A stretch of 64,000 bases of DNA from the NCBI RefSeq assembly GCF_003334815.1, contig NZ_QOWO01000016.1, one strand, 5' to 3'. The notes under the pieces are model-generated. The model was not told where the DNA came from, did not search any database, and saw only the letters and a list, made by a program, of their open reading frames with translations. Position numbers and translations under genes: made by a program. Shown here piece after piece: positions 5,309 through 55,935 of the stretch. Positions within the stretch are counted from its first letter, which is position 1. Each line of letters starts with the position of its first letter. Source of the stretch: Escherichia coli. Lineage in GTDB: Bacteria > Pseudomonadota > Gammaproteobacteria > Enterobacterales > Enterobacteriaceae.

Positions 5309-6069
5309 CCGCGTAGCCCCCAAATCGTCAGTGCCATCACCACGCCGACGCAGGTAGCCAGTGTCAGCAGACTGGCGATCGCCCAGCGTGCCAGTCCGGT
5401 ATTGATGTGGCCTTTAAACATATCGGCGACGGCATTAATCAACGGAAAGCCCGGCACCAGCAGCAGAACGCTGGCGGCCATCGCGATGGTGGGGGTATTG
5501 CTGAAAGTAGGGAGTTGCAAAAGCAATCCGGAAATGGTGGTGGCGGCGAAAGCGGTAAGGCAAAAGTTGATCTGTGGATGAAGATGACGTTGTGCCAGCA
5601 GCTGGCGGATATACATCGCGGCCGTACTGGCAAAGAAGGTGATGACGGCACCATCCCAGCCACCTTTATTGAGTTTACAGAAACAGGCGCAGGAAAGGCC
5701 AACCATTAAGGCTACCAGCCATCTTGGGTAACGTAATGGCTGAATTTGGCTAAATCGTTTCTCTACGCCTTTGTAATCCAGCAGATGGTGCTCCGCCAGA
5801 ATCACAATGTGCTGGACTTCAGTCACCACATGCATATTAATGCCGCGATCTTGATTTTTACGTGTCGATGTCAGGCATTGCCCATCTTTAATGGTTGTCA
5901 GCACTATGGCGTTCGAAGAGATAGAACTTTCGACGCTGTCCATCCCCAACGCCCGACCCAGTCGTGAGGAAAGCTCATCAACCAACGCGCTTTCCGCACC
6001 ATGTTGCAAAAGAAATAATCCACACTGGATACAAAGCCGTGTTACGGCTCGCTGTTGCTCAGTTTGCAT
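5299..6069 (-). CDS. yjjP: ThrE-family inner-membrane protein YjjP
   Basis: 256 aa from [12 protein letters not shown].... The track ORF is 21 codons longer. Confidence 0.9.
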
Positions 6070-9014: not shown

Positions 9015-9251
9015 ATGTTGCAACGTATGCTGGGCAGTGGCTGGGGAGTGTTGCTGCCGGGATTGCTGATTGCAGGGCTGATGTATGCGGATTTATCGCC
9101 GGATCAGTGGCGGATTGTCATTCTGATGGGATTAGTATTGACGCCTGTGATGCTGTATCACAAACAGTTGCGGCATTACATTTTGCTACCATCGTGCCTG
9201 GCGCTTATTGCTGGCATCATGCTGATGATAGTGAATTTGAATCAGGGATGA
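9015..9251 (+). CDS. yjjZ: Small membrane protein YjjZ
   Basis: 78 aa from MLQRMLGSGWGVLL.... The track ORF begins upstream at a non-native start. Confidence 0.8.
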   Translation: MLQRMLGSGWGVLLPGLLIAGLMYADLSPDQWRIVILMGLVLTPVMLYHKQLRHYILLPSCLALIAGIMLMIVNLNQG

Positions 9252-9289
9252 CAAAACAGGGAAGAAACAAGAAAGGAAGTAAAGATAAT

Positions 9290-9376
9290 TGGTGCGAGGG
9301 GGGGGACTTGAACCCCCACGTCCGTAAGGACACTAACACCTGAAGCTAGCGCGTCTACCAATTCCGCCACCTTCGC
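9290..9376 (-). tRNA. leuV: tRNA-Leu (anticodon CAG), single copy
   Basis: The reverse complement reads GCGAAGGTGGCGGAATTGGTAGACGCGCTAGCTTCAGGTGTTAGTGTCCTTACGGACGTGGGGGTTCAAGTCCCCCCCCTCGCACCA. This is a type-II tRNA with a long variable arm and encoded CCA. Confidence 0.95.
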
Positions 9377-9498
9377 ATACCATCAATTCTTAAAAAGAAT
9401 TGCTACCACGGAGGCGCATTCTAGTGGTTTTCAGCTTTTCGTCAATAGTTAATTATCGCCGGAGGTGTAATTGCTGGAAAAATGTCCATCAGGAAACT

Positions 9499-11653: not shown

Positions 11654-12331
11654 ATGAAGTGGGACTGGATTTTCTTTGATGCCGATGAAACGCTGTTTAC
11701 CTTTGACTCATTCACCGGCCTGCAGCGGATGTTTCTTGATTACAGCGTCACCTTTACCGCTGAAGATTTTCAGGACTATCAGGCCGTTAACAAGCCACTG
11801 TGGGTGGATTATCAAAACGGCGCGATCACTTCATTACAGCTTCAGCACGGGCGGTTTGAGAGCTGGGCCGAACGGCTGAACGTCGAGCCGGGTAAACTCA
11901 ACGAAGCCTTTATTAATGCGATGGCGGAAATCTGTACGCCGCTGCCGGGAGCGGTTTCTCTGCTTAACGCCATTCGTGGCAACGCCAAAATCGGCATCAT
12001 CACCAACGGTTTTAGCGCCTTGCAACAGGTGCGTCTGGAACGCACGGGCCTGCGTGATTACTTCGATTTGCTGGTGATTTCCGAAGAAGTTGGCGTTGCT
12101 AAACCGAATAAGAAAATTTTCGATTATGCGCTGGAACAGGCGGGCAATCCTGACCGTTCACGCGTGCTGATGGTTGGCGACACTGCCGAGTCCGATATTC
12201 TCGGTGGCATCAACGCCGGGCTTGCGACCTGCTGGCTGAATGCGCACAATCGCGAGCAACCAGAAGGCATCGCGCCCACCTGGACCGTTTCTTCGTTGCA
12301 CGAACTGGAGCAGCTCCTGTGTAAACACTGA
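11654..12331 (+). CDS. yjjG: HAD-family pyrimidine 5'-nucleotidase YjjG
   Basis: 225 aa with the HAD motif I FFDADETL. Confidence 0.95.
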
Positions 12332-12421
12332 TTGCCTCCCCCCCGTTGATGGGTAAAATAGCCGCAATTTTTCGTTTTCAACAAGCGCGGCGCGATGCCG
12401 CTTACTCAAGAAGAAAGAATT

Positions 12422-12496
12422 ATGACGTTGTCTCCTTATTTGCAAGAGGTGGCGAAGCGCCGCACTTTTGCCATTATTTCTCACCCCAATAATTAA
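12422..12496 (+). pseudogene. prfC: Orphaned native 5' end of prfC (first 22 codons, then 2 phage-derived codons and a stop)
   Basis: Encodes [24 protein letters not shown], the K-12 RF3 N-terminus as I recall it. It diverges from prfC after ...tctcaccc at 12486. Confidence 0.9.
12473..12486. repeat. attL core
   Basis: attatttctcaccc, identical to 54397-54410. Confidence 0.8.
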
Positions 12497-12650
12497 GCCC
12501 AAATTAAAGCTCTTTTACTCTTTCAAAATCCTTTCAGTTAATTGAGGTTGAGCTATATAACTCATTTAAATACATTTGGTTATGTAGCTTCTTTAATTGA
12601 AAATTCTTTCATGTAACTTTAAATCGATCAGTTTGCTTTCATCAAAAATC

Positions 12651-12707
12651 TGTACATATGCTTGTACATAATGTACAAAACAGCAGAGGTGTTTTGCGAT
12701 TTGTACA
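12651..12707. promoter_or_regulatory. Cluster of four TGTACA motifs upstream of int (candidate integrase arm-type or regulatory sites)
   Basis: TGTACA at 12651, 12663, 12672 and 12702. The same hexamer is clustered at the other prophage end. Confidence 0.4.
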
Positions 12708-12716
12708 AGGTGAGTA

Positions 12717-13940
12717 ATGGCGCTGTCTGATGCGTGGTTGCGTTCAGTCGTTGGAAAGGAACGTGATAAGGTTTTGGTTAAATCCGATCGTGATGGTCTG
12801 TCTGTCAGAGTATCACCGAAAGGTCGCGTAGTGTTCCAATATCGTTATCAATGGGCAGGGAAAGGTGAGCGTCTTGATATCGGAACTTACCCGGCAACTG
12901 GATTAAAAGAGGCCAGAGAAGAAGTTATCCGTCTCCGTGGTGAACTTGAGTCAAACCGTAATCCACGATTGGTCAAGCAGGCTGAAAAACGAAAAGCTAC
13001 TGAAGCCATGACGGTAGAGTCTGTGATCCGTGCCTGGTATGAAGCATATTGTGTAAAAAATAAAAAAGGTTCTGAACAGATACTCCGCTCGTTTGAGCTG
13101 CACCTGTTCTCTAAAATCGGGAATATCCCTCACGATGCAGCTACATTGCATGATTGGTTAGAAGTCCTGGAGCCTCTTAGCACTAAGACTCCAGCAATAG
13201 CAGACCGATTGCTAATTAACGCAAAGCAGGCCCATGTCTGGGCGTATAAGAGAAAGCTCATTGAAACTCGCCCGCTGTCGGATATCACGGGTAAAGATAT
13301 GGATATCCGTAAAGGTCAGAAGAAACGGTTTCTGACACATGATGAAATTAAAATCCTTTATGCTGCGATCGATGGTTCTCGAATGGTTCCTAAATACCGG
13401 GCCTTCATTAAGCTATTGCTGCATTTTGGCTGCCGTAGTTCAGAGCTAATTACTGCCAGGGTGGACGATTTTGATTTCATTAATAAGGTATGGACTGTAC
13501 CACCAGAACGACATAAGACTGGAGAGATAACAGGCGAACCGCTAAAGAGGCCCATTATTGAACCGGTGGAGGAGCTTATAAAGAACGCTATCTCTATGAA
13601 CAATGGTTCCGATATGCTTTTTACTAAGGAAGGAAGCAGGGAACCCGTTGGTCGAACATCATTGCAGTCGCTGCCTTACAATTTAATGCAGTACGCATGG
13701 AGGCGTTTGGGGCATCAATTCCCTCATTGGTCTCTTCATGATTTGAGGCGAACAGCACGAACAAACTTTTCTGATCTTACTGCTCCTCATATTGCAGAAA
13801 TAATGCTCGGCCATAAACTGCCAGGGGTTTGGCAGGTTTATGACAAGAGCGATTATCTAGAAGAACAGCGTAAAGCATATCAGGCATGGTGGGAGAGAGT
13901 TGAATCGATCGTTACTTGTACTGGCCCAGAATCTACCTGA
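12717..13940 (+). CDS. int: Tyrosine integrase, P4-type
   Basis: 407 aa. The N-terminal arm-binding domain pattern is (DGLSVRVSPKGRVVFQYRY). Catalytic residues are R (GCRSSEL), H-x-x-R (HDLRRTART) and Y (VYDKSDY). Confidence 0.92.
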   Translation: MALSDAWLRSVVGKERDKVLVKSDRDGLSVRVSPKGRVVFQYRYQWAGKGERLDIGTYPATGLKEAREEVIRLRGELESNRNPRLVKQAEKRKATEAMTVESVIRAWYEAYCVKNKKGSEQILRSFELHLFSKIGNIPHDAATLHDWLEVLEPLSTKTPAIADRLLINAKQAHVWAYKRKLIETRPLSDITGKDMDIRKGQKKRFLTHDEIKILYAAIDGSRMVPKYRAFIKLLLHFGCRSSELITARVDDFDFINKVWTVPPERHKTGEITGEPLKRPIIEPVEELIKNAISMNNGSDMLFTKEGSREPVGRTSLQSLPYNLMQYAWRRLGHQFPHWSLHDLRRTARTNFSDLTAPHIAEIMLGHKLPGVWQVYDKSDYLEEQRKAYQAWWERVESIVTCTGPEST

Positions 13941-14190
13941 CAGCTTGCGTAGCCCTGACAGTCTGTTTTGAGCGAACAGTGGACATTTTCAATGGCATTC
14001 TTGAGTAGGTTACGCTTAGACCAGAAGTAAGAGGTGATAGAATTATCAACAATACATAAAACATAGGGGATCCTTATTGATTTATTGATCTTGACCAACT
14101 TATGTGATGCAGTATGTCTTTAACTTGTATTACTATTATCTTTATCTTGTTGTTTCTAATAAACTTATCTTATTTCAGAAAGGAGTTTTT

Positions 14191-15891
14191 ATGCATTTAG
14201 TCACGAAATCTTATTTCGATGCCTTTTGCAAAGCATTCGCTGCGCCCTATGAGGAGACCAAAAATTTTGAGGCGTTTGTGAACTATTGTGCTTTTTCAAA
14301 ATACTCAGGCGACAAAGTTGAGGTCAGTGATCTTGTGTATGAAGGCCCGGACCCTGGTATTGATGGCGCATTTTTATTTTTAGACGACAGAGCAATTTTT
14401 TCAACTGAAGAACTTCAGGAGATTTTCCAAAACTCACGTCGCGAGTTTCAAGTTTCATTAATATTCACGCAAGCTAAGTCATCGGAGAAGTGGAGCAAAC
14501 AGGAAATAGACTCTTACATTGCGTCAATAAGAGATTATCTTTCACCAGCGCCACAACAACCCCACAGTGAATATCTAGCGGACTTTAAAAAAATGTTCAA
14601 CTTGATATTTGCTAATATCGGCAGAGTCAAAAATGGCCTTCCAGACTTATACGCATATTTTTTTAGTGCTGCACAAAATACAGAGGCCAGAGAAATAAAA
14701 GCTGCATTTGCATCGGGTGAAAAAAGCTTAAAGTCACTCGGGTTTTCACATGAAACATCCTTCATTATGGCTCACAAAGACATGATTCATGAGCTTTGGC
14801 TTGCTGCGGAAGGTCCAATAGAAGCTAAACTTCCTACAATAGGCTATGCTCCATTCCCAGCGGCCCCTAATATTAATAATGCCTATGTAGCTACAGTCAA
14901 AGCTCGTAGTTTTATTGATTCTATACTTAAAGACAAAAATGGAAACCCTCGAAAAAAATTATTCGAAGAAAATGTTAGAGATTTTCTGGGAATTGATGGT
15001 GACGTAAATTCAGAAATTGCAGGAACACTAGATACTGATGGAAAAAAAGCAAGATTTGGTTTAATGAATAATGGAGTGACAATAGTTGCATCAAGCGTGA
15101 GGCCTGCAGGACAAGAAATTTTTATACGAGATTTTCAAATTGTTAATGGATGTCAAACGTCTAATGTTCTTATATCAAAAGACATTCAAGTAGATGAATC
15201 AGTTAGTTTAATGATTAAATTAATTGAAACCGATGAGCCAGCGATCCTTGATGACATTGTACGAGCTACGAATAGACAATCTAAAGTTGAAGATGCACAG
15301 TTCATTTCAACGCTAAAAAAATTAAGGGAATTAGAGCATTATTTTAATGCTAAAGGTGCTATTGAAGGAAATAAAATTTATTTTGAGAGAAGAAAGGGGC
15401 AGTATAGTTCAGAAAGTATAGCTCCAGTACGCATATTTGATATCAGAGAAGTTGCGCGAGCATATGCTGCTATTGTTATGATGAGACCAGATTATTCCAG
15501 TCGTTATCCAAATAGGTTAACTGGTGACTTACTTAATGAGGTTTTCTCTTCCGATGCCCTCGAGGATGATTATTATATATCTTGCTATTGCTTGTATAGG
15601 CTAAAGGCTCTTATCTCAAATAAGAGGTTTGATGGGAAGTATTCAAAATTACGCTGGCATATTCTAACTGCTGCGTCAAAATACTGTGGTAATAATTATA
15701 AGGTTTGGGGGTTCAAAAATAAAAATGAAGCTCTTCATAACTTATTCTCAATGAATGATGGGGAGTGGTTTGAAAAACTTGAGAGTTTAGTAAAAATAGC
15801 TATACCAGATCCGGATATTTCTCGAGACTTACTAAAGTCGCAGCCTTTAACATCAACGATTCTCAAAAGTGTTGATAGCGTACCTAAATAA
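14191..15891 (+). CDS. AIPR-family (abortive infection phage resistance) protein, putative
   Basis: 566 aa from the ATG preceded by aaaggag. The central ..NNGVTIVA..FQIVNGCQTS.. matches my memory of the AIPR family signature. It is very AT-rich relative to the flanks and is followed by the hairpin gggaagc-ttatt-gcttccc. Confidence 0.6.
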   Translation: MHLVTKSYFDAFCKAFAAPYEETKNFEAFVNYCAFSKYSGDKVEVSDLVYEGPDPGIDGAFLFLDDRAIFSTEELQEIFQNSRREFQVSLIFTQAKSSEKWSKQEIDSYIASIRDYLSPAPQQPHSEYLADFKKMFNLIFANIGRVKNGLPDLYAYFFSAAQNTEAREIKAAFASGEKSLKSLGFSHETSFIMAHKDMIHELWLAAEGPIEAKLPTIGYAPFPAAPNINNAYVATVKARSFIDSILKDKNGNPRKKLFEENVRDFLGIDGDVNSEIAGTLDTDGKKARFGLMNNGVTIVASSVRPAGQEIFIRDFQIVNGCQTSNVLISKDIQVDESVSLMIKLIETDEPAILDDIVRATNRQSKVEDAQFISTLKKLRELEHYFNAKGAIEGNKIYFERRKGQYSSESIAPVRIFDIREVARAYAAIVMMRPDYSSRYPNRLTGDLLNEVFSSDALEDDYYISCYCLYRLKALISNKRFDGKYSKLRWHILTAASKYCGNNYKVWGFKNKNEALHNLFSMNDGEWFEKLESLVKIAIPDPDISRDLLKSQPLTSTILKSVDSVPK

Positions 15892-16129
15892 AGAGAAGGG
15901 AAGCTTATTGCTTCCCAATAAATTAACACACTTATAGAACCCTTGACTTAAACTTTTTACTGGTTCTCTCAGATATCGATAATTTTATAGGTTGTATCAT
16001 AGCGTGATCGTCTTCAAGAGAAACAACTTAACATTAAATTAGCAACGTTTGCTCTTGGCACAGACTTGACTGTCAGATTAGTTTGGTCTGTGCCATAGAT
16101 ATGTCAGCTCCCATCTGAGATAATACACG

Positions 16130-16324
16130 TTACTCAATAACTCCAGCAAATCTGTATATCTTGCATGATGCCCATTTATTTGGGCAGGATTTAATATCAG
16201 GATCTGGAAAGTCAGGCCTGTATTTCTGGCCAGTTCTCCTGTTTACGCTGTTCCAGCGAAGAACAGTCGATACTGAAACGCCACAGAAGTCGGCGACTTG
16301 TTTAGTTGTCATTAAGTTGTTCAT
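16130..16324 (-). CDS. Excisionase/AlpA-like HTH protein
   Basis: 64 aa with HTH TTKQVADFCGVSVSTVLRWN. It is the last gene of the leftward operon, next to int. Confidence 0.5.
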   Translation of the reverse strand: MNNLMTTKQVADFCGVSVSTVLRWNSVNRRTGQKYRPDFPDPDIKSCPNKWASCKIYRFAGVIE

Positions 16325-16944
16325 TACTTCACCTCCTGCGGCGGCTCCGGTAGCGGCATCCAGTGGGTTACTTTCGATGCCGGTTCTTCCCCATCGTCAG
16401 TAACTGCCCACCATTTGTTTCTCGACCAATCGTAATACCCTTCGAAGGTATCGCACTCAGTCCAGCCGTAAGGCTTCCCCCAACACCAAACATACTGTTT
16501 ATCGTTCGGCATTCGCTCACTACAGCTTATCCAACCATCCGGAGTTACCGGAGAGTTGCCCGACAGCTTGTTCAACTTGTAAGTCTGGCTTACAGGTTCG
16601 GCACCATGAAGCATGGCGGCGCGGCAGGCGTTCCAGCCTTCATTAAAACCGACTATGCCATTATTTAAAGACGGACGAGCATCTGGCACCACCGGCACTG
16701 GCTTGGCTATATATAGCGGCTGAACATACCAGCCCTTTGATAACCAACTGTCAGCAATGTTTTTACTCCTCGTTATTGCCGGAATACCTAAGCCATTTTC
16801 TGAATGCAGCCATGCCACCGGCTCCTCTTCTAGCGATGCCAGAGCAATTTCATAAGCACGGCGCTCAATATCGTCTCGAACCTCTAGGCTGCTGATTCGT
16901 TCTTTGATTTCTTTAATCAGTTCTTTATTGGTAAATGTGGTCAT
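16324..16944 (-). CDS. DUF551-like phage protein
   Basis: 206 aa with a C-terminus ...KVTHWMPLPEPP typical of DUF551. Confidence 0.5.
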   Translation of the reverse strand: MTTFTNKELIKEIKERISSLEVRDDIERRAYEIALASLEEEPVAWLHSENGLGIPAITRSKNIADSWLSKGWYVQPLYIAKPVPVVPDARPSLNNGIVGFNEGWNACRAAMLHGAEPVSQTYKLNKLSGNSPVTPDGWISCSERMPNDKQYVWCWGKPYGWTECDTFEGYYDWSRNKWWAVTDDGEEPASKVTHWMPLPEPPQEVK

Positions 16945-48371: not shown

Positions 48372-48815
48372 ATGAATAAAGTTAAAAGTGTTTACAGCCC
48401 GTCCGAAAATGCAATCTACAACGCAGCGCTATATGAAAGTTATATCAAGGAGGGGACATGGCCGCAGGATGGTATTGAAATCAGCGATGAGGATGCTGTC
48501 AGATTTAATGGGGGAAATAAGCCAACAGGAAAAATGCTGGGAATGGTTTCAGGGACCCTTGCATGGGTTGATGAGCCGCCGCTTTCACCAGAACAGAAAA
48601 TATCAGATGCAGAAAACATGAAAGCCACATTTCGTGCAAAAGCTGACAGTGAAATATCCTGGCGTCAGGATGCTGTTGATGCTGGTATCGCAACTGATGA
48701 AGAAACTTCAACTCTCACCCAATGGAAGAAATACCGTGTGCTGCTGATGCGTGTTGATACTTCAACAGCACCCGATATTGAATGGCCTACGCCTCCGGCA
48801 GTCCAGGCCAGATGA
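48372..48815 (+). CDS. Tail fibre assembly chaperone (Tfa), currently expressed orientation
   Basis: 147 aa with the C-terminus ...YRVLLMRVDTSTAPDIEWPTPP. Confidence 0.8.
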   Translation: MNKVKSVYSPSENAIYNAALYESYIKEGTWPQDGIEISDEDAVRFNGGNKPTGKMLGMVSGTLAWVDEPPLSPEQKISDAENMKATFRAKADSEISWRQDAVDAGIATDEETSTLTQWKKYRVLLMRVDTSTAPDIEWPTPPAVQAR

Positions 48816-49389
48816 CGTCCGGCGCTGTGCTGGTATCTGTTGCCGTCACCGCGTCAATGTAATCCAGCACGGCGTTAAGTCGGGTTGTTTCTGCCGGCGT
48901 CAACTTCCGTCCGGCCTGTAATTTCAACTGAATCAGACTGATGGAAGCCATTGCAGCATCAATCAGATACTGGCGCTGTGCTTCTGCCGCTTCTACTGCG
49001 GCGCTATGCTGTGCCTCAGTATCCGTCACCCATTTCTCACCATCCCATTTATCGTATGGCGTTAATGGGGCGATAGTGGTTGTATTATCAGGGTAATCAC
49101 CCGGAGCTGTGATTTCTTTGGCGTCTCCCGTTTCGGTGCTATAGACAATTTCACCACGATGGTCTGACACATATTCCCATGATTTTAAATCCATAGAACG
49201 GCAGATAGCATAACCCGCCTTATATGTGCCAGGTTCATCCAGACAGGAATATGCAGGGATACCGACACCAATGGCAAGATATTCATTTGAAGTAGAAATA
49301 TATTCCCGAGTTTTACCATCATAGTTATAGACGGTAATATTCCCCGCCTTCGTGGCAATAAGCTCGCTATTTAATACGGCGTTATCCAT
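48787..49389 (-). CDS. Alternative tail fibre assembly chaperone (silent orientation)
   Basis: 200 aa with the C-terminus ...DAVTATDTSTAPDVIWPGLPEA. Confidence 0.8.
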   Translation of the reverse strand: MDNAVLNSELIATKAGNITVYNYDGKTREYISTSNEYLAIGVGIPAYSCLDEPGTYKAGYAICRSMDLKSWEYVSDHRGEIVYSTETGDAKEITAPGDYPDNTTTIAPLTPYDKWDGEKWVTDTEAQHSAAVEAAEAQRQYLIDAAMASISLIQLKLQAGRKLTPAETTRLNAVLDYIDAVTATDTSTAPDVIWPGLPEA

Positions 49390-49868
49390 TATGCAGCCCT
49401 CACGATATAGTTAAATGCAATATTTCGTGGACGGGTTTCACTCCCGCCAGTATTACCGATACTCCCTCGTGAATGAAGTGTCGGTGATGGGATCAGACTC
49501 CCTCCTGTATTTGTGGCATCAAGTCCCCGTCCTTGTGTGTATGTCTTTTTGAAAATCGTAGCCAGTTCCCATTCATCTTTTGTGTCGTAACCATCATTGG
49601 CAACAACAATATGGCGGTGTTTTTCCAGCATCCCTGTCTGAATGCTCAATAAAACACGTCCTGCATCAATACCGCGCCCGTCATCCCAGCCACGAATAAA
49701 CTCACCACGTAAATCAGGCAATTTATTTGTCGGATAAGCCTTTGCCAGTTCCGGGTATTCTTCAGCAGAAAAAGCCGCACCGTTGCATTTCAGCCAGCCT
49801 GTTGGCGGTGTGGCTGAAGGCCATGGAACAGGCACACCAACAGGTAATGCAGAGCCTTCTCCCAAACC
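49389..49868 (-). CDS. Alternative tail-fibre C-terminal cassette (promoterless, collar-domain type)
   Basis: Reads GLGEGSALPVGVPVPWPS...GWLKCNGAAFSAEEYPELAKAY...LPDLRGEFIRGW from the recombination site. It has no start of its own. Confidence 0.75.
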   Translation of the reverse strand, partial: GLGEGSALPVGVPVPWPSATPPTGWLKCNGAAFSAEEYPELAKAYPTNKLPDLRGEFIRGWDDGRGIDAGRVLLSIQTGMLEKHRHIVVANDGYDTKDEWELATIFKKTYTQGRGLDATNTGGSLIPSPTLHSRGSIGNTGGSETRPRNIAFNYIVRAA

Positions 49869-49882
49869 AACGTTTATGAAAA
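49857..49882. repeat. Invertase crossover site, right (inverted relative to the left site)
   Basis: TTCTCCCAAACC-AA-CGTTTATGAAAA. The first 14 nt are identical to the reverse complement of the left site. Confidence 0.75.
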
Positions 49883-49936
49883 TGCAGAAATAACGAGCAA
49901 ATGGCATCATTCCTGCTTTTGTCAGGGAGATCTACT

Positions 49937-50491
49937 ATGCTTATTGGCTATGTACGTGTGTCAACAAATGACCAGAACACAGATCTACAACGTAATGCGC
50001 TGAACTGTGCAGGATGCGAGCTGATTTTTGAAGACAAGATAAGCGGTACAAAGTCCGAAAGGCCGGGACTGAAAAAACTGCTCAGGACATTATCGGCAGG
50101 TGACACTCTGGTTGTCTGGAAGCTGGATCGGCTGGGGCGTAGTATGCGGCATCTGGTCATTCTGGTTGAGGAGTTGCGCGAACGTGGCGTTAATTTTCGC
50201 AGCCTGACGGATGCTATTGATACCAGCACACCGATGGGGCGTTTTTTCTTTCATGTGATGGGTGCCCTGGCTGAAATGGAACGAGAACTGATTGTTGAAC
50301 GAACAAAAGCTGGACTGGAAGCTGCTCGCGCACAGGGACGAATTGGGGGACGTCGTCCCAAACTTACACCAGAACAATGGGCGCAGGCCGGGCGATTAAT
50401 TGCATCAGGCGTTCCTCGCCAGAAGGTGGCGATCATCTATGATGTTGGTGTATCGACACTGTATAAGAAGTTTCCGGTCGGAGATAAATGA
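49937..50491 (+). CDS. pin: Serine DNA invertase (Pin/Gin/Cin/Hin family)
   Basis: 184 aa from MLIGYVRVSTNDQNTDLQRNAL with a C-terminal HTH. Confidence 0.93.
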   Translation: MLIGYVRVSTNDQNTDLQRNALNCAGCELIFEDKISGTKSERPGLKKLLRTLSAGDTLVVWKLDRLGRSMRHLVILVEELRERGVNFRSLTDAIDTSTPMGRFFFHVMGALAEMERELIVERTKAGLEAARAQGRIGGRRPKLTPEQWAQAGRLIASGVPRQKVAIIYDVGVSTLYKKFPVGDK

Positions 50492-50590: not shown

Positions 50591-50849
50591 ATTTTTTGCA
50601 TGAGATGATTTGAACGCCCTAGCACCAACCGTTCATGATTGCACGCCACTGTCTCTAGAACTGCTATGAGCATGAAGCCGCTGTTCAAACTAAGAATTTA
50701 TATGGCACTAACAGAAAAAATGTTACATATATGTTGAGCTTTAACGCAACATAGACATGTTCTATAGTTTGTGTCTCACCACCAGTTGAAAAAAAACGAA
50801 AATAGATTAACAATGTTCAGAAGAAACCTTCATAATAGAAGAGGTATAA

Positions 50850-51104
50850 ATGGGTAAGATTATTCGGTGGATGCTTTTTTTTGTCGGATTATTTTCCGTT
50901 GCATATTCAATATATAAATATCAACAATCTCCGCAGAGTTTATTTTACATAATCGGTGCTATAGGAACACTTTTATCTGCTACATGTGGTTTACTTGAGA
51001 TAAAAAGCAAGAAATCGAATGGCAGTATAACTGCTGGCGACAACTCAAATATCGTTGTCATTAATGGTTCAGAAAACACATCAAAAATAAAAAATAGAGG
51101 GTGA
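50850..51104 (+). CDS. Small 2-TM membrane protein with a hydrophilic GDNSN-motif tail (unknown function)
   Basis: 84 aa with SD gaggt and two hydrophobic helices. The tail is ...ITAGDNSNIVVINGSENTSKIKNRG. Very AT-rich. Confidence 0.6.
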   Translation: MGKIIRWMLFFVGLFSVAYSIYKYQQSPQSLFYIIGAIGTLLSATCGLLEIKSKKSNGSITAGDNSNIVVINGSENTSKIKNRG

Positions 51105-51106
51105 TT

Positions 51107-52042
51107 ATGTTTGATAAAGAGGTTAACTTAGGAGACAACTCAAACGTAGTAAAAACAGAAGGGAATAACAACACAACAATAATAAATAATTTTGATGAGA
51201 AGTTTATAGGTCACGTTGTAAGATCCATGCTTTATGAAAGTATGCCTTCCTTTCAAGAAGAAGCTAGAAAAAAGATAATTGCGTCAACTGATGAATACAT
51301 TAGAGAGCTAATATCTGAGTTAGTAATTCAAAAAACAGATGCAGATACATTAAACCAAAAACTATCAACGCCTGACGTTCAATACTCTCTTTTTGAATCA
51401 GCTAAATGTTTTGCAAAAAATCCAGAAAGAACAGCAAAATCAACTCTGTTAAATTTAGTTGTAAAAAAAATAAATGAATTGGATGGAGATCATGAAGAGC
51501 TTTCCTCTATCGATCTGGCAATAAACGTCGCTACAAAACTTAGCGTAAAGCAAATAAGGTATATATCTTTAATATACTATATTAAAGATATTGTAAAAAT
51601 ATCACAAGATAGTGCCGGCGCTTATTGCATAATAGATCCTTCAAAAGATACAACAGAAGAAGTTGACGATTTCTTTTTATTCCCAAATGATATAAAAAGG
51701 AACAAGCAGGATGTTTATGATCTTTATATCGATCTATATAACAATCAAATGGATGTTGTATTTAAAGATGAAGAGATTGGCCCAGTTGATTATAGTATGC
51801 TTATAGCATTGGGTTGTATCATTCAACCTGCATTCCCTCAGCGAACATTTGTACAAAATGTAAAGAAAAGAACAGGATTAGATTTAAACGACAGCGAACA
51901 AAAATTAAAGCTATCGACATTCATTGAGAAAATAGAAAAAGCTATAGAGATAGATTCTGTCGATTATATAGTATTAACTACGGTTGGTAGACAAATAGCT
52001 AACGCCTATATATCAACAAGAATGAGATTAGTTAACTTATAA
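51107..52042 (+). CDS. Uncharacterised 311-aa cytoplasmic protein, coupled to the 84-aa ORF
   Basis: ATG at 51107 (or GTG 51101, overlapping the upstream TGA). The N-terminus is ..VNLGDNSNVVKTEGNNNTTIINN. I see no catalytic motif I can recognise. Very AT-rich. Confidence 0.6.
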   Translation: MFDKEVNLGDNSNVVKTEGNNNTTIINNFDEKFIGHVVRSMLYESMPSFQEEARKKIIASTDEYIRELISELVIQKTDADTLNQKLSTPDVQYSLFESAKCFAKNPERTAKSTLLNLVVKKINELDGDHEELSSIDLAINVATKLSVKQIRYISLIYYIKDIVKISQDSAGAYCIIDPSKDTTEEVDDFFLFPNDIKRNKQDVYDLYIDLYNNQMDVVFKDEEIGPVDYSMLIALGCIIQPAFPQRTFVQNVKKRTGLDLNDSEQKLKLSTFIEKIEKAIEIDSVDYIVLTTVGRQIANAYISTRMRLVNL

Positions 52043-52063
52043 ATATCTCATATTTCTTCATCC

Positions 52064-52099
52064 AAGGTGGTGGCTTCATCATCCACCGCCTTCTTTTCT
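52064..52099 (+). terminator. Rho-independent terminator of the two-gene module
   Basis: aaggtggtgg-cttcatcat-ccaccgcctt followed by cttttct. Confidence 0.65.
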
Positions 52100-52103
52100 G
52101 CTC

Positions 52104-52265
52104 TTAAGAGTAGTGAACAAACCACTCGTCAGCAAACTCCCAAGTATCTTTCAGAGTCTCCTGAACAAAAGCCTTAGCAGAATCCTTATCTGCGGTGTAC
52201 GTAACAGGAAAATCATCGCTATGGTAGCTTTGACGCTCACCCCCATACCATAAAATATCAAGAGA
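52104..52265 (-). pseudogene. dinI-like remnant (C-terminal part only, no start codon)
   Basis: The minus frame reads ...[37 protein letters not shown]. About 100 nt are roughly 90 percent identical (hand count) to the 3' end of the intact copy at 53881-54129. Confidence 0.8.
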
Positions 52266-52445
52266 TTACGACTCATTTCCCCATGACTCTTCACCAACCA
52301 ACAGTTCTATCAACATAAGATGTAAACTCATAAACTAAGCAAGATAAAAAAATTAACAGAATTTTGTTGATTTCATGTCTGTGGAGTGTTAACTTAAAAT
52401 GAGACCTGAAGTACTGAAGGTCTTTGACACACTGGAGAAGCAACT

Positions 52446-52805
52446 ATGTTAACGCCGTTTGGTAAGACAGTAAGAAAAATGCGCATAGACTTGGGGCTTA
52501 CGCTTAAAAGCATGGCTGAGGCTATGGGCATGACCTCGTCTTATCTTTCAGCGATCGAAACTGGTAAAAGGGCGGTCACTAAGCCCGTGCTTGATAGCAT
52601 CATTAGCTATTTTAATGCGGATGAAAAACAAAAAGAAAAGCTTATCAGTGCAGCTCGTGACTCTCAGCAGTCAGTAGAGATCAGCTTGTCAGGTAAGAAT
52701 GGCCACGCTCGTGAAGTCGCAATTGCGTTCGCTCGTAGTTTTGATGAATTAAATGAAGAAGACTTCCGTAATTTACGACAGATTTTGAATCGAAAACAGC
52801 AGTAG
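52446..52805 (+). CDS. XRE-family HTH regulator
   Basis: 119 aa with FGKTVRKMRIDLGLTLKSMAEAMGMTSSYLSAIETGKR. The direct repeat ctgaag-ta-ctgaag lies at 52406-52419 upstream. Confidence 0.8.
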   Translation: MLTPFGKTVRKMRIDLGLTLKSMAEAMGMTSSYLSAIETGKRAVTKPVLDSIISYFNADEKQKEKLISAARDSQQSVEISLSGKNGHAREVAIAFARSFDELNEEDFRNLRQILNRKQQ

Positions 52806-52813
52806 GAGGCGGC

Positions 52814-53335
52814 TTGAGCGGACAAGATTATCGTGTACCTCCGCAGAATCGTGAATCAATACGTTCTATCGTCACATCTCTGCGGAGCGCATTTGGTATT
52901 ACTGGGCTTAAATTCCCTGTAATGGAGGTAATTGAGTTCGCATTGCCTCAGTTGATCCCGGATTTTGAGTTCCACATTGGTGGCATGAAAGAAATGGGAG
53001 AAACGCATGGTCTTACGTACCCACAGGAACATTTATTGATTCTGCGCGAAGACATTTACGAAGGCGCTTTGAATGGGGTAGGGCGAGATAGGATGACTGC
53101 CGCGCATGAATTGGGTCATCTTCTTATGCACAGGAACATCGCATTTGCTCGTTCTGCCCCAGGGGTAAAAATCCGCCCTTTTGAGAGTAGTGAATGGCAA
53201 GCTAAATGTTTTAGTGGTGAGTTATTAGTGCCGGCTATGCATGTCAGTATTTTAAAAGGTATGACGGCTGAGGATGTTGCTAAGGCATGCGGAGTTTCAT
53301 TAGTGGCAGCGCGTTATCAGCTAGACAGAATGTAA
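52814..53335 (+). CDS. ImmA/IrrE-family zinc metallopeptidase
   Basis: 173 aa with a TTG start, the HEXXH motif AAHELGHLLMH, and pairing with an upstream XRE gene. Confidence 0.75.
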   Translation: MSGQDYRVPPQNRESIRSIVTSLRSAFGITGLKFPVMEVIEFALPQLIPDFEFHIGGMKEMGETHGLTYPQEHLLILREDIYEGALNGVGRDRMTAAHELGHLLMHRNIAFARSAPGVKIRPFESSEWQAKCFSGELLVPAMHVSILKGMTAEDVAKACGVSLVAARYQLDRM

Positions 53336-54213: not shown

Positions 54214-54328
54214 TGTACAAATGTTCTTTGGCTACAAATACACCTACTGATCATGTTCTGCTATGCTCTGATACCTCCAAAATGTACAATCAGCGGCATG
54301 AATTTTTCTTTGTACATATGATTGTACA
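54214..54328. promoter_or_regulatory. Cluster of four TGTACA motifs in the attR arm
   Basis: TGTACA at 54214, 54283, 54311 and 54323, mirroring the cluster at 12651-12707. Confidence 0.4.
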
Positions 54329-54348
54329 TAATTAAAGAGACAACAATT

Positions 54349-55935
54349 ATGACAAGCCTTTTGGCCGCAGAGGTAGCGAAAAGAAGAACCTTTGCAATTA
54401 TTTCTCACCCGGACGCCGGTAAAACTACCATCACCGAGAAGGTGCTGCTGTTCGGACAGGCCATTCAGACCGCCGGTACAGTAAAAGGCCGTGGCTCTAA
54501 CCAGCACGCTAAGTCGGACTGGATGGAGATGGAAAAGCAGCGTGGGATCTCCATTACCACGTCTGTGATGCAGTTTCCGTATCACGACTGCCTGGTTAAC
54601 CTGCTCGACACCCCGGGGCACGAAGACTTCTCGGAAGATACCTATCGTACCCTGACGGCGGTGGACTGCTGCCTGATGGTTATCGACGCTGCAAAAGGTG
54701 TTGAAGATCGTACCCGCAAGCTGATGGAAGTTACCCGTCTGCGCGACACGCCGATCCTCACCTTTATGAACAAACTTGACCGTGATATCCGCGACCCGAT
54801 GGAGCTGCTCGATGAAGTTGAGAACGAGCTGAAAATCGGCTGTGCACCGATCACCTGGCCGATTGGCTGCGGCAAGCTGTTTAAAGGCGTTTACCACCTT
54901 TATAAAGATGAAACCTATCTCTATCAGAGCGGTAAAGGCCACACCATTCAGGAAGTCCGCATTGTTAAAGGGCTGAATAACCCGGATCTCGACGCTGCGG
55001 TTGGTGAAGATCTGGCGCAGCAGCTGCGTGATGAACTGGAGCTGGTGAAAGGCGCGTCTAACGAGTTCGACAAAGAATTGTTCCTTGCGGGCGAAATCAC
55101 TCCGGTATTCTTCGGTACTGCGCTGGGTAACTTCGGCGTTGATCATATGCTGGATGGCCTGGTGGAGTGGGCACCTGCGCCGATGCCGCGTCAGACTGAT
55201 ACCCGTACTGTAGAAGCGAGCGAAGACAAATTTACCGGCTTCGTATTTAAAATTCAGGCCAACATGGACCCGAAACACCGTGACCGCGTGGCGTTTATGC
55301 GCGTGGTATCCGGTAAATATGAAAAAGGCATGAAGCTGCGCCAGGTGCGCACTGCGAAAGATGTGGTGATCTCCGACGCGCTGACCTTTATGGCGGGCGA
55401 CCGTTCGCACGTTGAAGAAGCGTATCCGGGCGATATCCTCGGCCTGCATAACCACGGCACTATTCAGATCGGCGACACCTTTACCCAGGGTGAGATGATG
55501 AAGTTCACTGGTATTCCGAACTTCGCGCCGGAACTGTTCCGTCGTATCCGCCTGAAAGATCCGCTGAAGCAAAAACAGCTGCTCAAAGGGCTGGTACAGC
55601 TTTCCGAAGAGGGCGCGGTGCAGGTGTTCCGTCCGATCTCCAACAACGACCTGATCGTTGGTGCAGTTGGTGTGCTGCAGTTTGATGTGGTGGTATCGCG
55701 CCTGAAGAGCGAATACAACGTTGAAGCAGTGTATGAGTCAGTCAACGTTGCCACTGCCCGCTGGGTAGAATGTGCGGACGCGAAGAAATTCGAAGAGTTC
55801 AAGCGTAAGAACGAAAGCCAACTGGCGCTTGATGGCGGCGATAACCTCGCTTACATCGCTACCAGCATGGTAAACCTGCGCCTGGCGCAGGAACGTTATC
55901 CGGACGTTCAGTTCCACCAGACCCGCGAGCATTAA
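54349..55935 (+). CDS. prfC: Peptide chain release factor 3 (RF3) with a phage-derived N-terminus
   Basis: 528 aa from [27 protein letters not shown].... From [12 protein letters not shown] onward it matches RF3. Codons 1-9 differ from the native [10 protein letters not shown]. Confidence 0.95.
54397..54410. repeat. attR core
   Basis: attatttctcaccc. Confidence 0.8.

Follow-up and report, generated by a model that had tools for sequence, protein, structure and literature searches.

In the present study a stretch of 64,000 nucleotides from Escherichia coli (NCBI RefSeq assembly GCF_003334815.1, contig NZ_QOWO01000016.1), referred to as the window in the following, was analysed with regard to one gene at 14191–15891 (+), which a preliminary description made from the letters alone had proposed as a single-gene defence moron of the AIPR family. 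It is very probable that this gene is a single-gene anti-phage defence gene of the AbiU (AIPR) type, and that it is carried as exchangeable cargo between integrase (int) and excisionase (xis) of a lambdoid prophage in prfC; its product would most likely act as a nuclease gated by a ParB-like module. The evidence comes from the membership of the protein in a defence family, from the fold and the conserved residues of its two larger domains, from the location of the gene in a slot with variable content and from its solitary occurrence.

The gene and its family

The open reading frame at 14191–15891 (+) is genuine and encodes 566 amino acids. The ATG at 14191 was taken as start, because all of the 37 homologues in the alignment begin at M-H-(L/R/K)-V; a GTG at 14104, which would add 29 residues, is a possible alternative by rule only. 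The strong Shine-Dalgarno sequence that had been described was found as AAGGAG at 14180–14185 (+), 5 nucleotides before the ATG, as read from the sequence. The content of guanine plus cytosine (GC) is, as had been claimed, lower than that of int and the early-left genes (36.8%, with 27.9% at third codon positions, vs 45.4% and 47.6%; 49.9% in the entire prophage), and the peptide NNGVTIVASSV...FQIVNGCQTSNVL, by which the family had initially been recognised, occupies residues 293–327.

This recognition proved correct in the profile searches. Pfam AIPR (PF10592) matches residues 258–520 over profile positions 1–294 of 308 with 150.8 bits (cutoff 25, E 9.1e-44), and the PADLOC model for AbiU (PDLC02357) matches the full length, i.e., residues 2–562 over profile positions 3–535 of 537 (370.9 bits, E 3.7e-111). 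In PHROGs the protein falls into phrog_1841, ‘Abi alpha-like abortive infection mechanism’, of the category moron, and the RefSeq name of the identical protein is ‘AIPR family protein’ (WP_061362269.1); NCBIfam holds no equivalog for it. Conservation was scored in 134 relatives, each at most 50% identical to the others, and the AIPR signature motifs N293-N-G-V-T297 and I317-V-N-G-C-Q-T323 are 98–100% conserved among them.

The gene was detected in 63 of 5,426 complete E. coli genomes, intact and at no less than 95% identity, and the protein collection contains a 100% identical protein in a cluster of 214 member sequences. A profile search that spanned 1.84 billion cluster representatives yielded 6,083 matches at E <= 0.001, counted as 50%-identity clusters, of which 1,031 had E <= 1e-30; full-length matches prevailed among the best 150. 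Orthologues of 566 residues, give or take a few, occur with 70–76% protein identity across gamma-, beta- and alpha-proteobacteria (Pseudomonas, Burkholderia, Methylobacterium, Kordiimonas). Identity of this degree over such a range implies strong purifying selection and, as far as can be judged from the sequences, a wide and fairly recent horizontal spread. Two of these orthologues (L002 6001–7701, L005 6001–7698) show 40–43% GC within flanks of 56–60%, and in all five replicons or hosts examined (Pseudomonas, Kordiimonas, Fels-2, mycobacteriophage Thyatira, Lactococcus) the gene lies 8–19 GC points below its flanks, which is typical of horizontally moving genes.

No conserved neighbour is common to the close homologues in Pseudomonas and Kordiimonas, where the genes are solitary. 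Hence the label ‘single-gene’ of the preliminary description holds, and the gene would appear to act without an obligatory partner.

Domain structure of the protein

The AlphaFold2 model of the protein has a mean pLDDT (predicted local distance difference test) of 83 and a pTM (predicted template modelling score) of 0.44, values which indicate a multi-domain protein with uncertain packing of the modelled domains. Three parts were distinguished.

The N-terminal region (residues 1–250; 14191–14940, +) displays a restriction-endonuclease-like alpha/beta fold, resembling PD-(D/E)xK nucleases of the FokI/Mrr/MspJI type, together with an alpha/beta subdomain; its structural neighbours are the modification-dependent nucleases MspJI and AspBHI. 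E27 (14269–14271), D58 (14362–14364) and Q94-A-K96 (14470–14478), all on the plus strand, are candidates for the catalytic residues, and among the 134 relatives E27 is conserved in 97%, D58 in 100%, Q94 in 99% and K96 in 91%. In the model the first long helix (22–38) contains E27, D58 stands just before the first core strand (59–64), and Q94-A-K96 closes the third core strand (88–96), so that an E...D...(D/E/Q)-x-K catalytic motif is found on the core strands. The same E...D...QxK arrangement is present in EcoKMrr as F-E...G-D-G-G-I-D-G...V-Q-A-K. AbiU-1 has been assigned to the PD-(D/E)XK superfamily (PMC13099982; bioRxiv 10.1101/2024.10.26.620412) and a FokI-like model has been described for AbiUi (PMC13064643). 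Judging from the model, residues 1–250 are likely a nuclease of the PD-(D/E)xK type. Pfam, searched with three separate segments of the protein at E up to 10, returned for residues 1–250 nothing but a chance match to HisKA_2, and no sequence-profile relation of this region to a named nuclease family was found.

The central AIPR core (residues 255–430; 14953–15480, +) has a ParB/sulfiredoxin-like (ParB/Srx) fold, in agreement with Makarova et al. (2013, PMC3632139), who place AbiU1/AIPR in the ParB superfamily. Seven of the 50 best-ranked chains, out of 48,164, had this fold (scores in brackets): PadC (5.9), pNOB8 ParB-N (5.8), BrxU (5.7), two sulfiredoxins (5.4, 5.3), SspE (5.3) and KorB (4.9), a number that looks far beyond chance by judgement rather than by calculation. 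The core contains the motifs N261-V-R263, N293-N-G-x-T297, N319-G-C-Q-T323 (15145–15159), T360-N-x-Q363 and E399-R-R401. Invariant in the relatives are N261, R263, N273, N294, G295, T297, N319, G320, Q322, N361 and R400, and C321 is 98% conserved. N-G-C-Q-T lies at a strand-to-helix junction of the AlphaFold2 model, and D-G-Q-Q-R of BrxU stands in a similar local sequence context: by eye, V-L-D-G-Q-Q-R-I-T-A-L of BrxU is patterned alike and its I-Q-R-E-F resembles N-V-R-D-F. Foldseek against the PDB gave no match at E <= 0.001, the top matches (EF-Tu, small-subunit processome) being meaningless, and a profile of 38 homologues searched against PDB sequences gave a chance match alone (E 0.8).

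The C-terminal domain (residues 431–566; 15481–15888, +) is all alpha-helical in the AlphaFold2 model, with block means of pLDDT mostly between 76 and 95 (61 at residues 441–450), and is less conserved than the remainder of the protein. The R-x4-6-H motif of HEPN domains was not found in it.

Relation to known systems

The nearest known system is AbiU (AbiU1/AbiUi) of Lactococcus lactis, which the models of PADLOC and DefenseFinder represent. An AIPR protein of 589 residues on the Lactococcus cremoris plasmid pG322 matches the AbiU model with E 1.2e-177 and is followed by a gene for 341 residues, which by sequence is an AbiU1/AbiU2-like layout. The query, with 566 residues and a likewise full-length model match, is 24% identical to it over residues 48–476 (E 6e-28), and both proteins share D-G-x-D, Q-x-K, F-E-x-N-V-R-D, N-N-G-x-T-I, I-V-N-G-x-Q-T-S, A-T-N-x-Q and R-R-K; Cys321 in N-G-C-Q-T of the E. 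coli protein is Leu in the lactococcal one. To judge by their sequences, lactococcal AbiU and the E. coli gene are both single-gene systems. However, the E. coli gene has no AbiU2-like (HEPN) gene downstream, and it is carried by a prophage in a Gram-negative bacterium, whereas the lactococcal gene is borne on a plasmid. In the account of Dai 2001 given in PMC13064643, lactococcal AbiU is described as reducing the efficiency of plating and delaying phage transcription. One study (bioRxiv 10.1101/2024.06.14.598830) selected a Vibrio AbiU for experimental validation and validated an anti-AbiU protein of a phage, ‘Surt’, against this AbiU.

Full-length homologues are also carried by other temperate phages, namely STM2723.1 of Fels-2, between gpA/DinI and the portal gene, and gp38 of mycobacteriophage Thyatira, beside the integrase (30% and 26% identity at 98–99% query coverage). 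They belong to other phage lineages and insertion slots than the E. coli gene, and neither is characterised.

Compared with the FokI and Mrr/MspJI-type PD-QxK nucleases, the AbiU protein has no match to Mrr_cat or another Pfam family in its N-terminal segment, and the partner of its predicted nuclease is an AIPR core, where those enzymes have a DNA-recognition or winged-helix domain. Compared with BrxU and SspE of the GmrSD family, which combine a ParB-like DUF262 NTPase with a DUF1524 HNH domain, the domain order is the opposite, and the nuclease is HNH in those enzymes and, as modelled, PD-(D/E)xK in the AbiU protein. The AIPR core (residues about 250–405) is also common to MzaE, the AIPR protein of the five-gene Mza system (PADLOC E 6.5e-9; NCBIfam NF041935 E 8.8e-10). 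Membership in that system was rejected, as NF041935 reached 37.7 bits where the cutoff is 1050 and the neighbours are int and xis instead of MzaABCD.

Location in the prophage

The left part of the window corresponds to the fhuF-yjjZ-leu tRNA-rsmC-holD-rimI-yjjG region of E. coli. The prophage extends over approximately 41.9 kb between two copies of the 14-bp repeat ATTATTTCTCACCC, which lie within prfC at its 5′ end: the attL core at 12473–12486, where the N-terminal remnant of prfC is annotated in the RefSeq record of a matching genome, and the identical attR core at 54397–54410, with a replacement PrfC N-terminus provided by the prophage just upstream.

At its left end the gene order is int (+), the AIPR gene (+), xis (−), followed by the early-left genes DUF551, DUF551, yfdR, yfdQ and a yfdP-like gene. 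The proposed position between integrase and excisionase is thus confirmed by both neighbours. The tyrosine integrase (12717–13940, +) matches Phage_integrase, Arm-DNA-bind_3 and Phage_int_M in Pfam. The excisionase of 64 residues (16130–16324, −) matches PHROG 1553, ‘excisionase’, over its full length (E 3.2e-34); its HTH_17 and Xis matches in Pfam and NCBIfam are sub-threshold only, and it is unannotated in all four RefSeq records examined that contain this stretch. The same integrase is present in 700 of the 5,426 complete E. coli genomes (about 13%), and about 9% of the prophages with this integrase carry the AbiU gene, which occupies the same int-xis position in all three genomes examined.

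The gene fills a discrete variable slot of 2.1 kb (13955–16037), as was determined by blastn against four prophages that lack it. Homology to them stops at 13922–13954 and resumes at 16038–16044 in three and at 16122 in the fourth, the compared slots being L009 5736–7371, L010 5707–7582, L011 5725–9075 and L012 5739–7147. In the window the slot contains the AbiU/AIPR gene and its flanks only, with no second conserved open reading frame, whereas other prophages carry different cargo between the same conserved flanks: a 331-residue hypothetical protein in NU14, a 342-residue one in A26, two of 81 and 436 residues in O103:H2, and a DUF4365 protein in ETEC6334. PADLOC, run on the cargo of these four, matched the DUF4365 protein alone, weakly, to Aga_REase, and gave no match for the other three. 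This arrangement fits the former reading of the gene as an inserted moron. By comparison of these sequences the region between int and xis appears to be a slot for the exchange of cargo, and the cargoes other than AbiU are candidates for uncharacterised defence genes.

Of two matches in ‘plasmid’ records, the one examined (pOHT76-1_1, which is among the three genomes with the gene in this position) has the same chromosomal rsmC-holD-rimI-yjjG context, so that it is no evidence of carriage on plasmids.

A hairpin downstream of the gene had been described as its own terminator. The hairpin itself is real (GGGAAGC-TTATT-GCTTCCC at 15898–15916, a G+C-rich stem of 7 bp; −13.3 kcal/mol, z −2.7), but its attribution to the gene holds only in part. 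It separates the AbiU gene from the xis/early-left operon, which runs towards it from the other side, the plus strand after it reads AATAAATT with no run of T, and the T-rich tail is found on the minus strand only, for which the terminator scan scores it. It is therefore better regarded as a terminator of the leftward operon or, at best, as a bidirectional one between convergent genes. No terminator was called by the scan between int and the AbiU gene; as both have the same orientation, transcription by read-through from the int promoter is possible. An Rfam search of 12300–16500 at E <= 1 revealed no RNA family.

Mode of action and alternative explanations

If the domains act together, the protein would work as follows. 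The invariant N-x-R, N-N-G-x-T, N-G-C-Q-T, T-N-x-Q and E-R-R motifs would form a ligand- or DNA-binding pocket, by which the ParB-like AIPR core senses a cue of infection, either phage DNA or a nucleotide or other small ligand. The sensing core would then license the N-terminal FokI/Mrr-type nuclease, probably once the protein has oligomerised in the manner of FokI, and the licensed nuclease would cut DNA, so that phage transcription and replication are delayed or blocked. The gene would presumably be expressed from the prophage, and the outcome for the infected cell may be abortive. Such a model of DNA cutting fits the delayed phage transcription seen with lactococcal AbiU, the selection of the Vibrio AbiU and the existence of the anti-AbiU protein ‘Surt’.

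Several points weigh against this reading. The protection conferred by lactococcal AbiU is 10- to 100-fold only (PMC13064643). Of the 134 relatives, 9% have another residue in place of K96, and the N-terminal profile, compared with EcoKMrr by hhalign, reached a probability of 0.9–9% with the G-I-D-G motif alone aligned. The D-G-Q-(Q/H)-R motif of ParB-type NTPases is absent, Asp being changed to Asn and Arg to Thr in N-G-C-Q-T, and with both residues replaced binding of nucleoside triphosphates (NTPs) in the ParB manner may not apply. As to expression, the promoter scan called no sigma-70-like promoter in the 250-bp spacer between int and the AbiU gene (across the scanned region 14 such sites were counted vs 10.2 +/- 3.2 in shuffled sequences, i.e., not above expectation), and the AT-rich gene and leader (34–37% GC) could be silenced by H-NS in E. 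coli.

It was also considered whether AbiU/AIPR is a permuted counterpart of the GmrSD-type enzymes, in which the N-G-C-Q-T switch senses a cue that is not an NTP and gates a D...QxK nuclease of the FokI/MspJI type. The invariant N-G-C-Q-T in place of D-G-Q-Q-R would point to such a cue, which might be a small molecule, a modified base or a particular structure of the DNA. We advance this idea tentatively and consider it doubtful. In hhalign the AIPR core gave nothing against single BrxU and ParB sequences, and its profile (119 sequences) reached a probability of 1.5% against an alignment of 121 DUF262 sequences of the BrxU type. Because of this low probability and the replaced Asp and Arg, the protein was not filed under DUF262/GmrSD and only resembles that design.

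Direct immunity instead of an abortive response would result if the protein were a modification- or structure-dependent restriction enzyme similar to Type IV. The ParB-fold module, like those of GmrSD, BrxU and SspE, would read phage DNA that is modified or otherwise unusual, the MspJI-type D...QxK nuclease would cut only that DNA, and the infected cell would survive. Modification-dependent nucleases are indeed the structural neighbours of both halves (MspJI and AspBHI; BrxU and SspE), the gene needs no partner or antitoxin, and its preservation in the 63 E. coli genomes is what would be expected of a non-toxic enzyme. Against it stand the missing arginine of D-G-Q-Q-R, the lack of a profile-level relation to DUF262 and the failure to find SRA or a similar DNA-reader domain. 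Moreover, the phages against which lactococcal AbiU acts are not known to have hypermodified DNA. The action of lactococcal AbiU is weak and covers three groups of lactococcal phages (PMC13064643). On balance such an enzyme seems unlikely here.

A role outside of defence, either as a ParB-like accessory factor in DNA binding or partition, or as a silent passenger that is repressed by H-NS and has no function in E. coli, would agree with the ParB-like fold, with the very AT-rich sequence lacking a called promoter and with the small proportion of prophages of this integrase that have the gene. This is very unlikely in view of the match, over the full length, to a family for which Lactococcus provides defence data and a Vibrio phage a validated anti-AbiU protein, the residues of nuclease type that are invariant across the diverse relatives, the purifying selection implied by the identity among three classes of proteobacteria, and the location in a slot that exchanges cargo. 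Finally, an abortive toxin of the HEPN type directed at RNA, for which the statement that AIPR proteins have an N-terminal HEPN domain (Makarova et al., 2012, PMC3506569) and the effect of lactococcal AbiU on phage transcripts (PMC13064643) might be adduced, was rejected on fold and motif and is scarcely credible, since an all-alpha fold combined with a conserved R-x4-6-H is not found in the protein.

Further features of the window

Some observations concern the integration site and the edges of the slot. Integration falls within the first 22 codons of prfC (12422–12486 and 54349–54410); PrfC remains intact, but its 5′ end and upstream region are phage-derived and its N-terminal sequence is changed. 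TGTACA palindromes occur within both ends of the prophage, four upstream of int (12650–12709, including the inverted repeat 12661–12681/12689–12709) and three near attR (54283–54330). They are probably arm-type binding sites of Int or binding sites of Xis, and possibly sites of int autoregulation.

About 10–65 nucleotides after the int stop the motif TGAC(A/T)GTC(C/T)G(C/T)TTTGAGC is found in the window (13950–13975) and in two of the compared prophages (L009 ~5783–5801, L011 ~5772–5790); a third (L012) has a diverged version. The motif may represent the left recombination boundary of the slot. At the right edge an almost invariant hairpin of 9–10 pairs (GGCACAGAC...GTCTGTGCC; 16057–16094, −) lies about 35 nucleotides past xis, with no run of T after it. 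It is present in three of the four compared prophages, all with different cargo, and could be a site of processing or retroregulation, or a recombination boundary. An inverted repeat at 13955–13979/16052–16076 (72% complementary) was examined as a pair of transposon ends and rejected, as its 9-nucleotide core is at chance level and its right arm is part of the hairpin that follows xis rather than of the end of a mobile element.

Towards attR a second cargo region of low GC extends from 50687 to 53335, the lowest stretch of 1.7 kb having 32.9%. Two of its open reading frames, of 84 (50850–51104) and 313 residues (51101–52042), have no Pfam or PADLOC match. They are followed by an XRE helix-turn-helix protein (52446–52805; PADLOC capH, 3.6e-10) and an ImmA/IrrE protease (52814–53335; capP, 4.9e-11), a pair that by these matches is to be classed as CapH/CapP-like, putatively DNA-damage-responsive, regulators. 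A serine invertase of the Hin/Gin type (49901–50491; Resolvase, E 1e-51) adjoins the oppositely oriented genes for tail-fibre collar and tail-fibre assembly (48787–49910, −), which suggests an invertible switch of host range. In the tRNA-Leu segment of the left part (9087–9409), ARAGORN reports one tRNA (9290–9376), compared with three in tandem in the RefSeq record of the matching genome.

Implications

As a find the gene is ordinary, being a member of an already catalogued defence family that is publicly annotated and occupies the location where temperate phages usually carry their cargo. The int-xis slot of prophages that integrate into prfC is of broader use: its cargoes differ, are mostly unannotated and in three of four cases have no PADLOC match, so that defence genes not yet characterised could be sought there at little cost. 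AbiU is widespread, as the number of clusters matching the profile demonstrates. The E. coli prophage orthologue offers a tractable model for the mechanism of this family in a genetically easy host, and the dissection of its domains points to residues that can be tested, i.e., the E-D-QxK site and the N-G-C-Q-T core.

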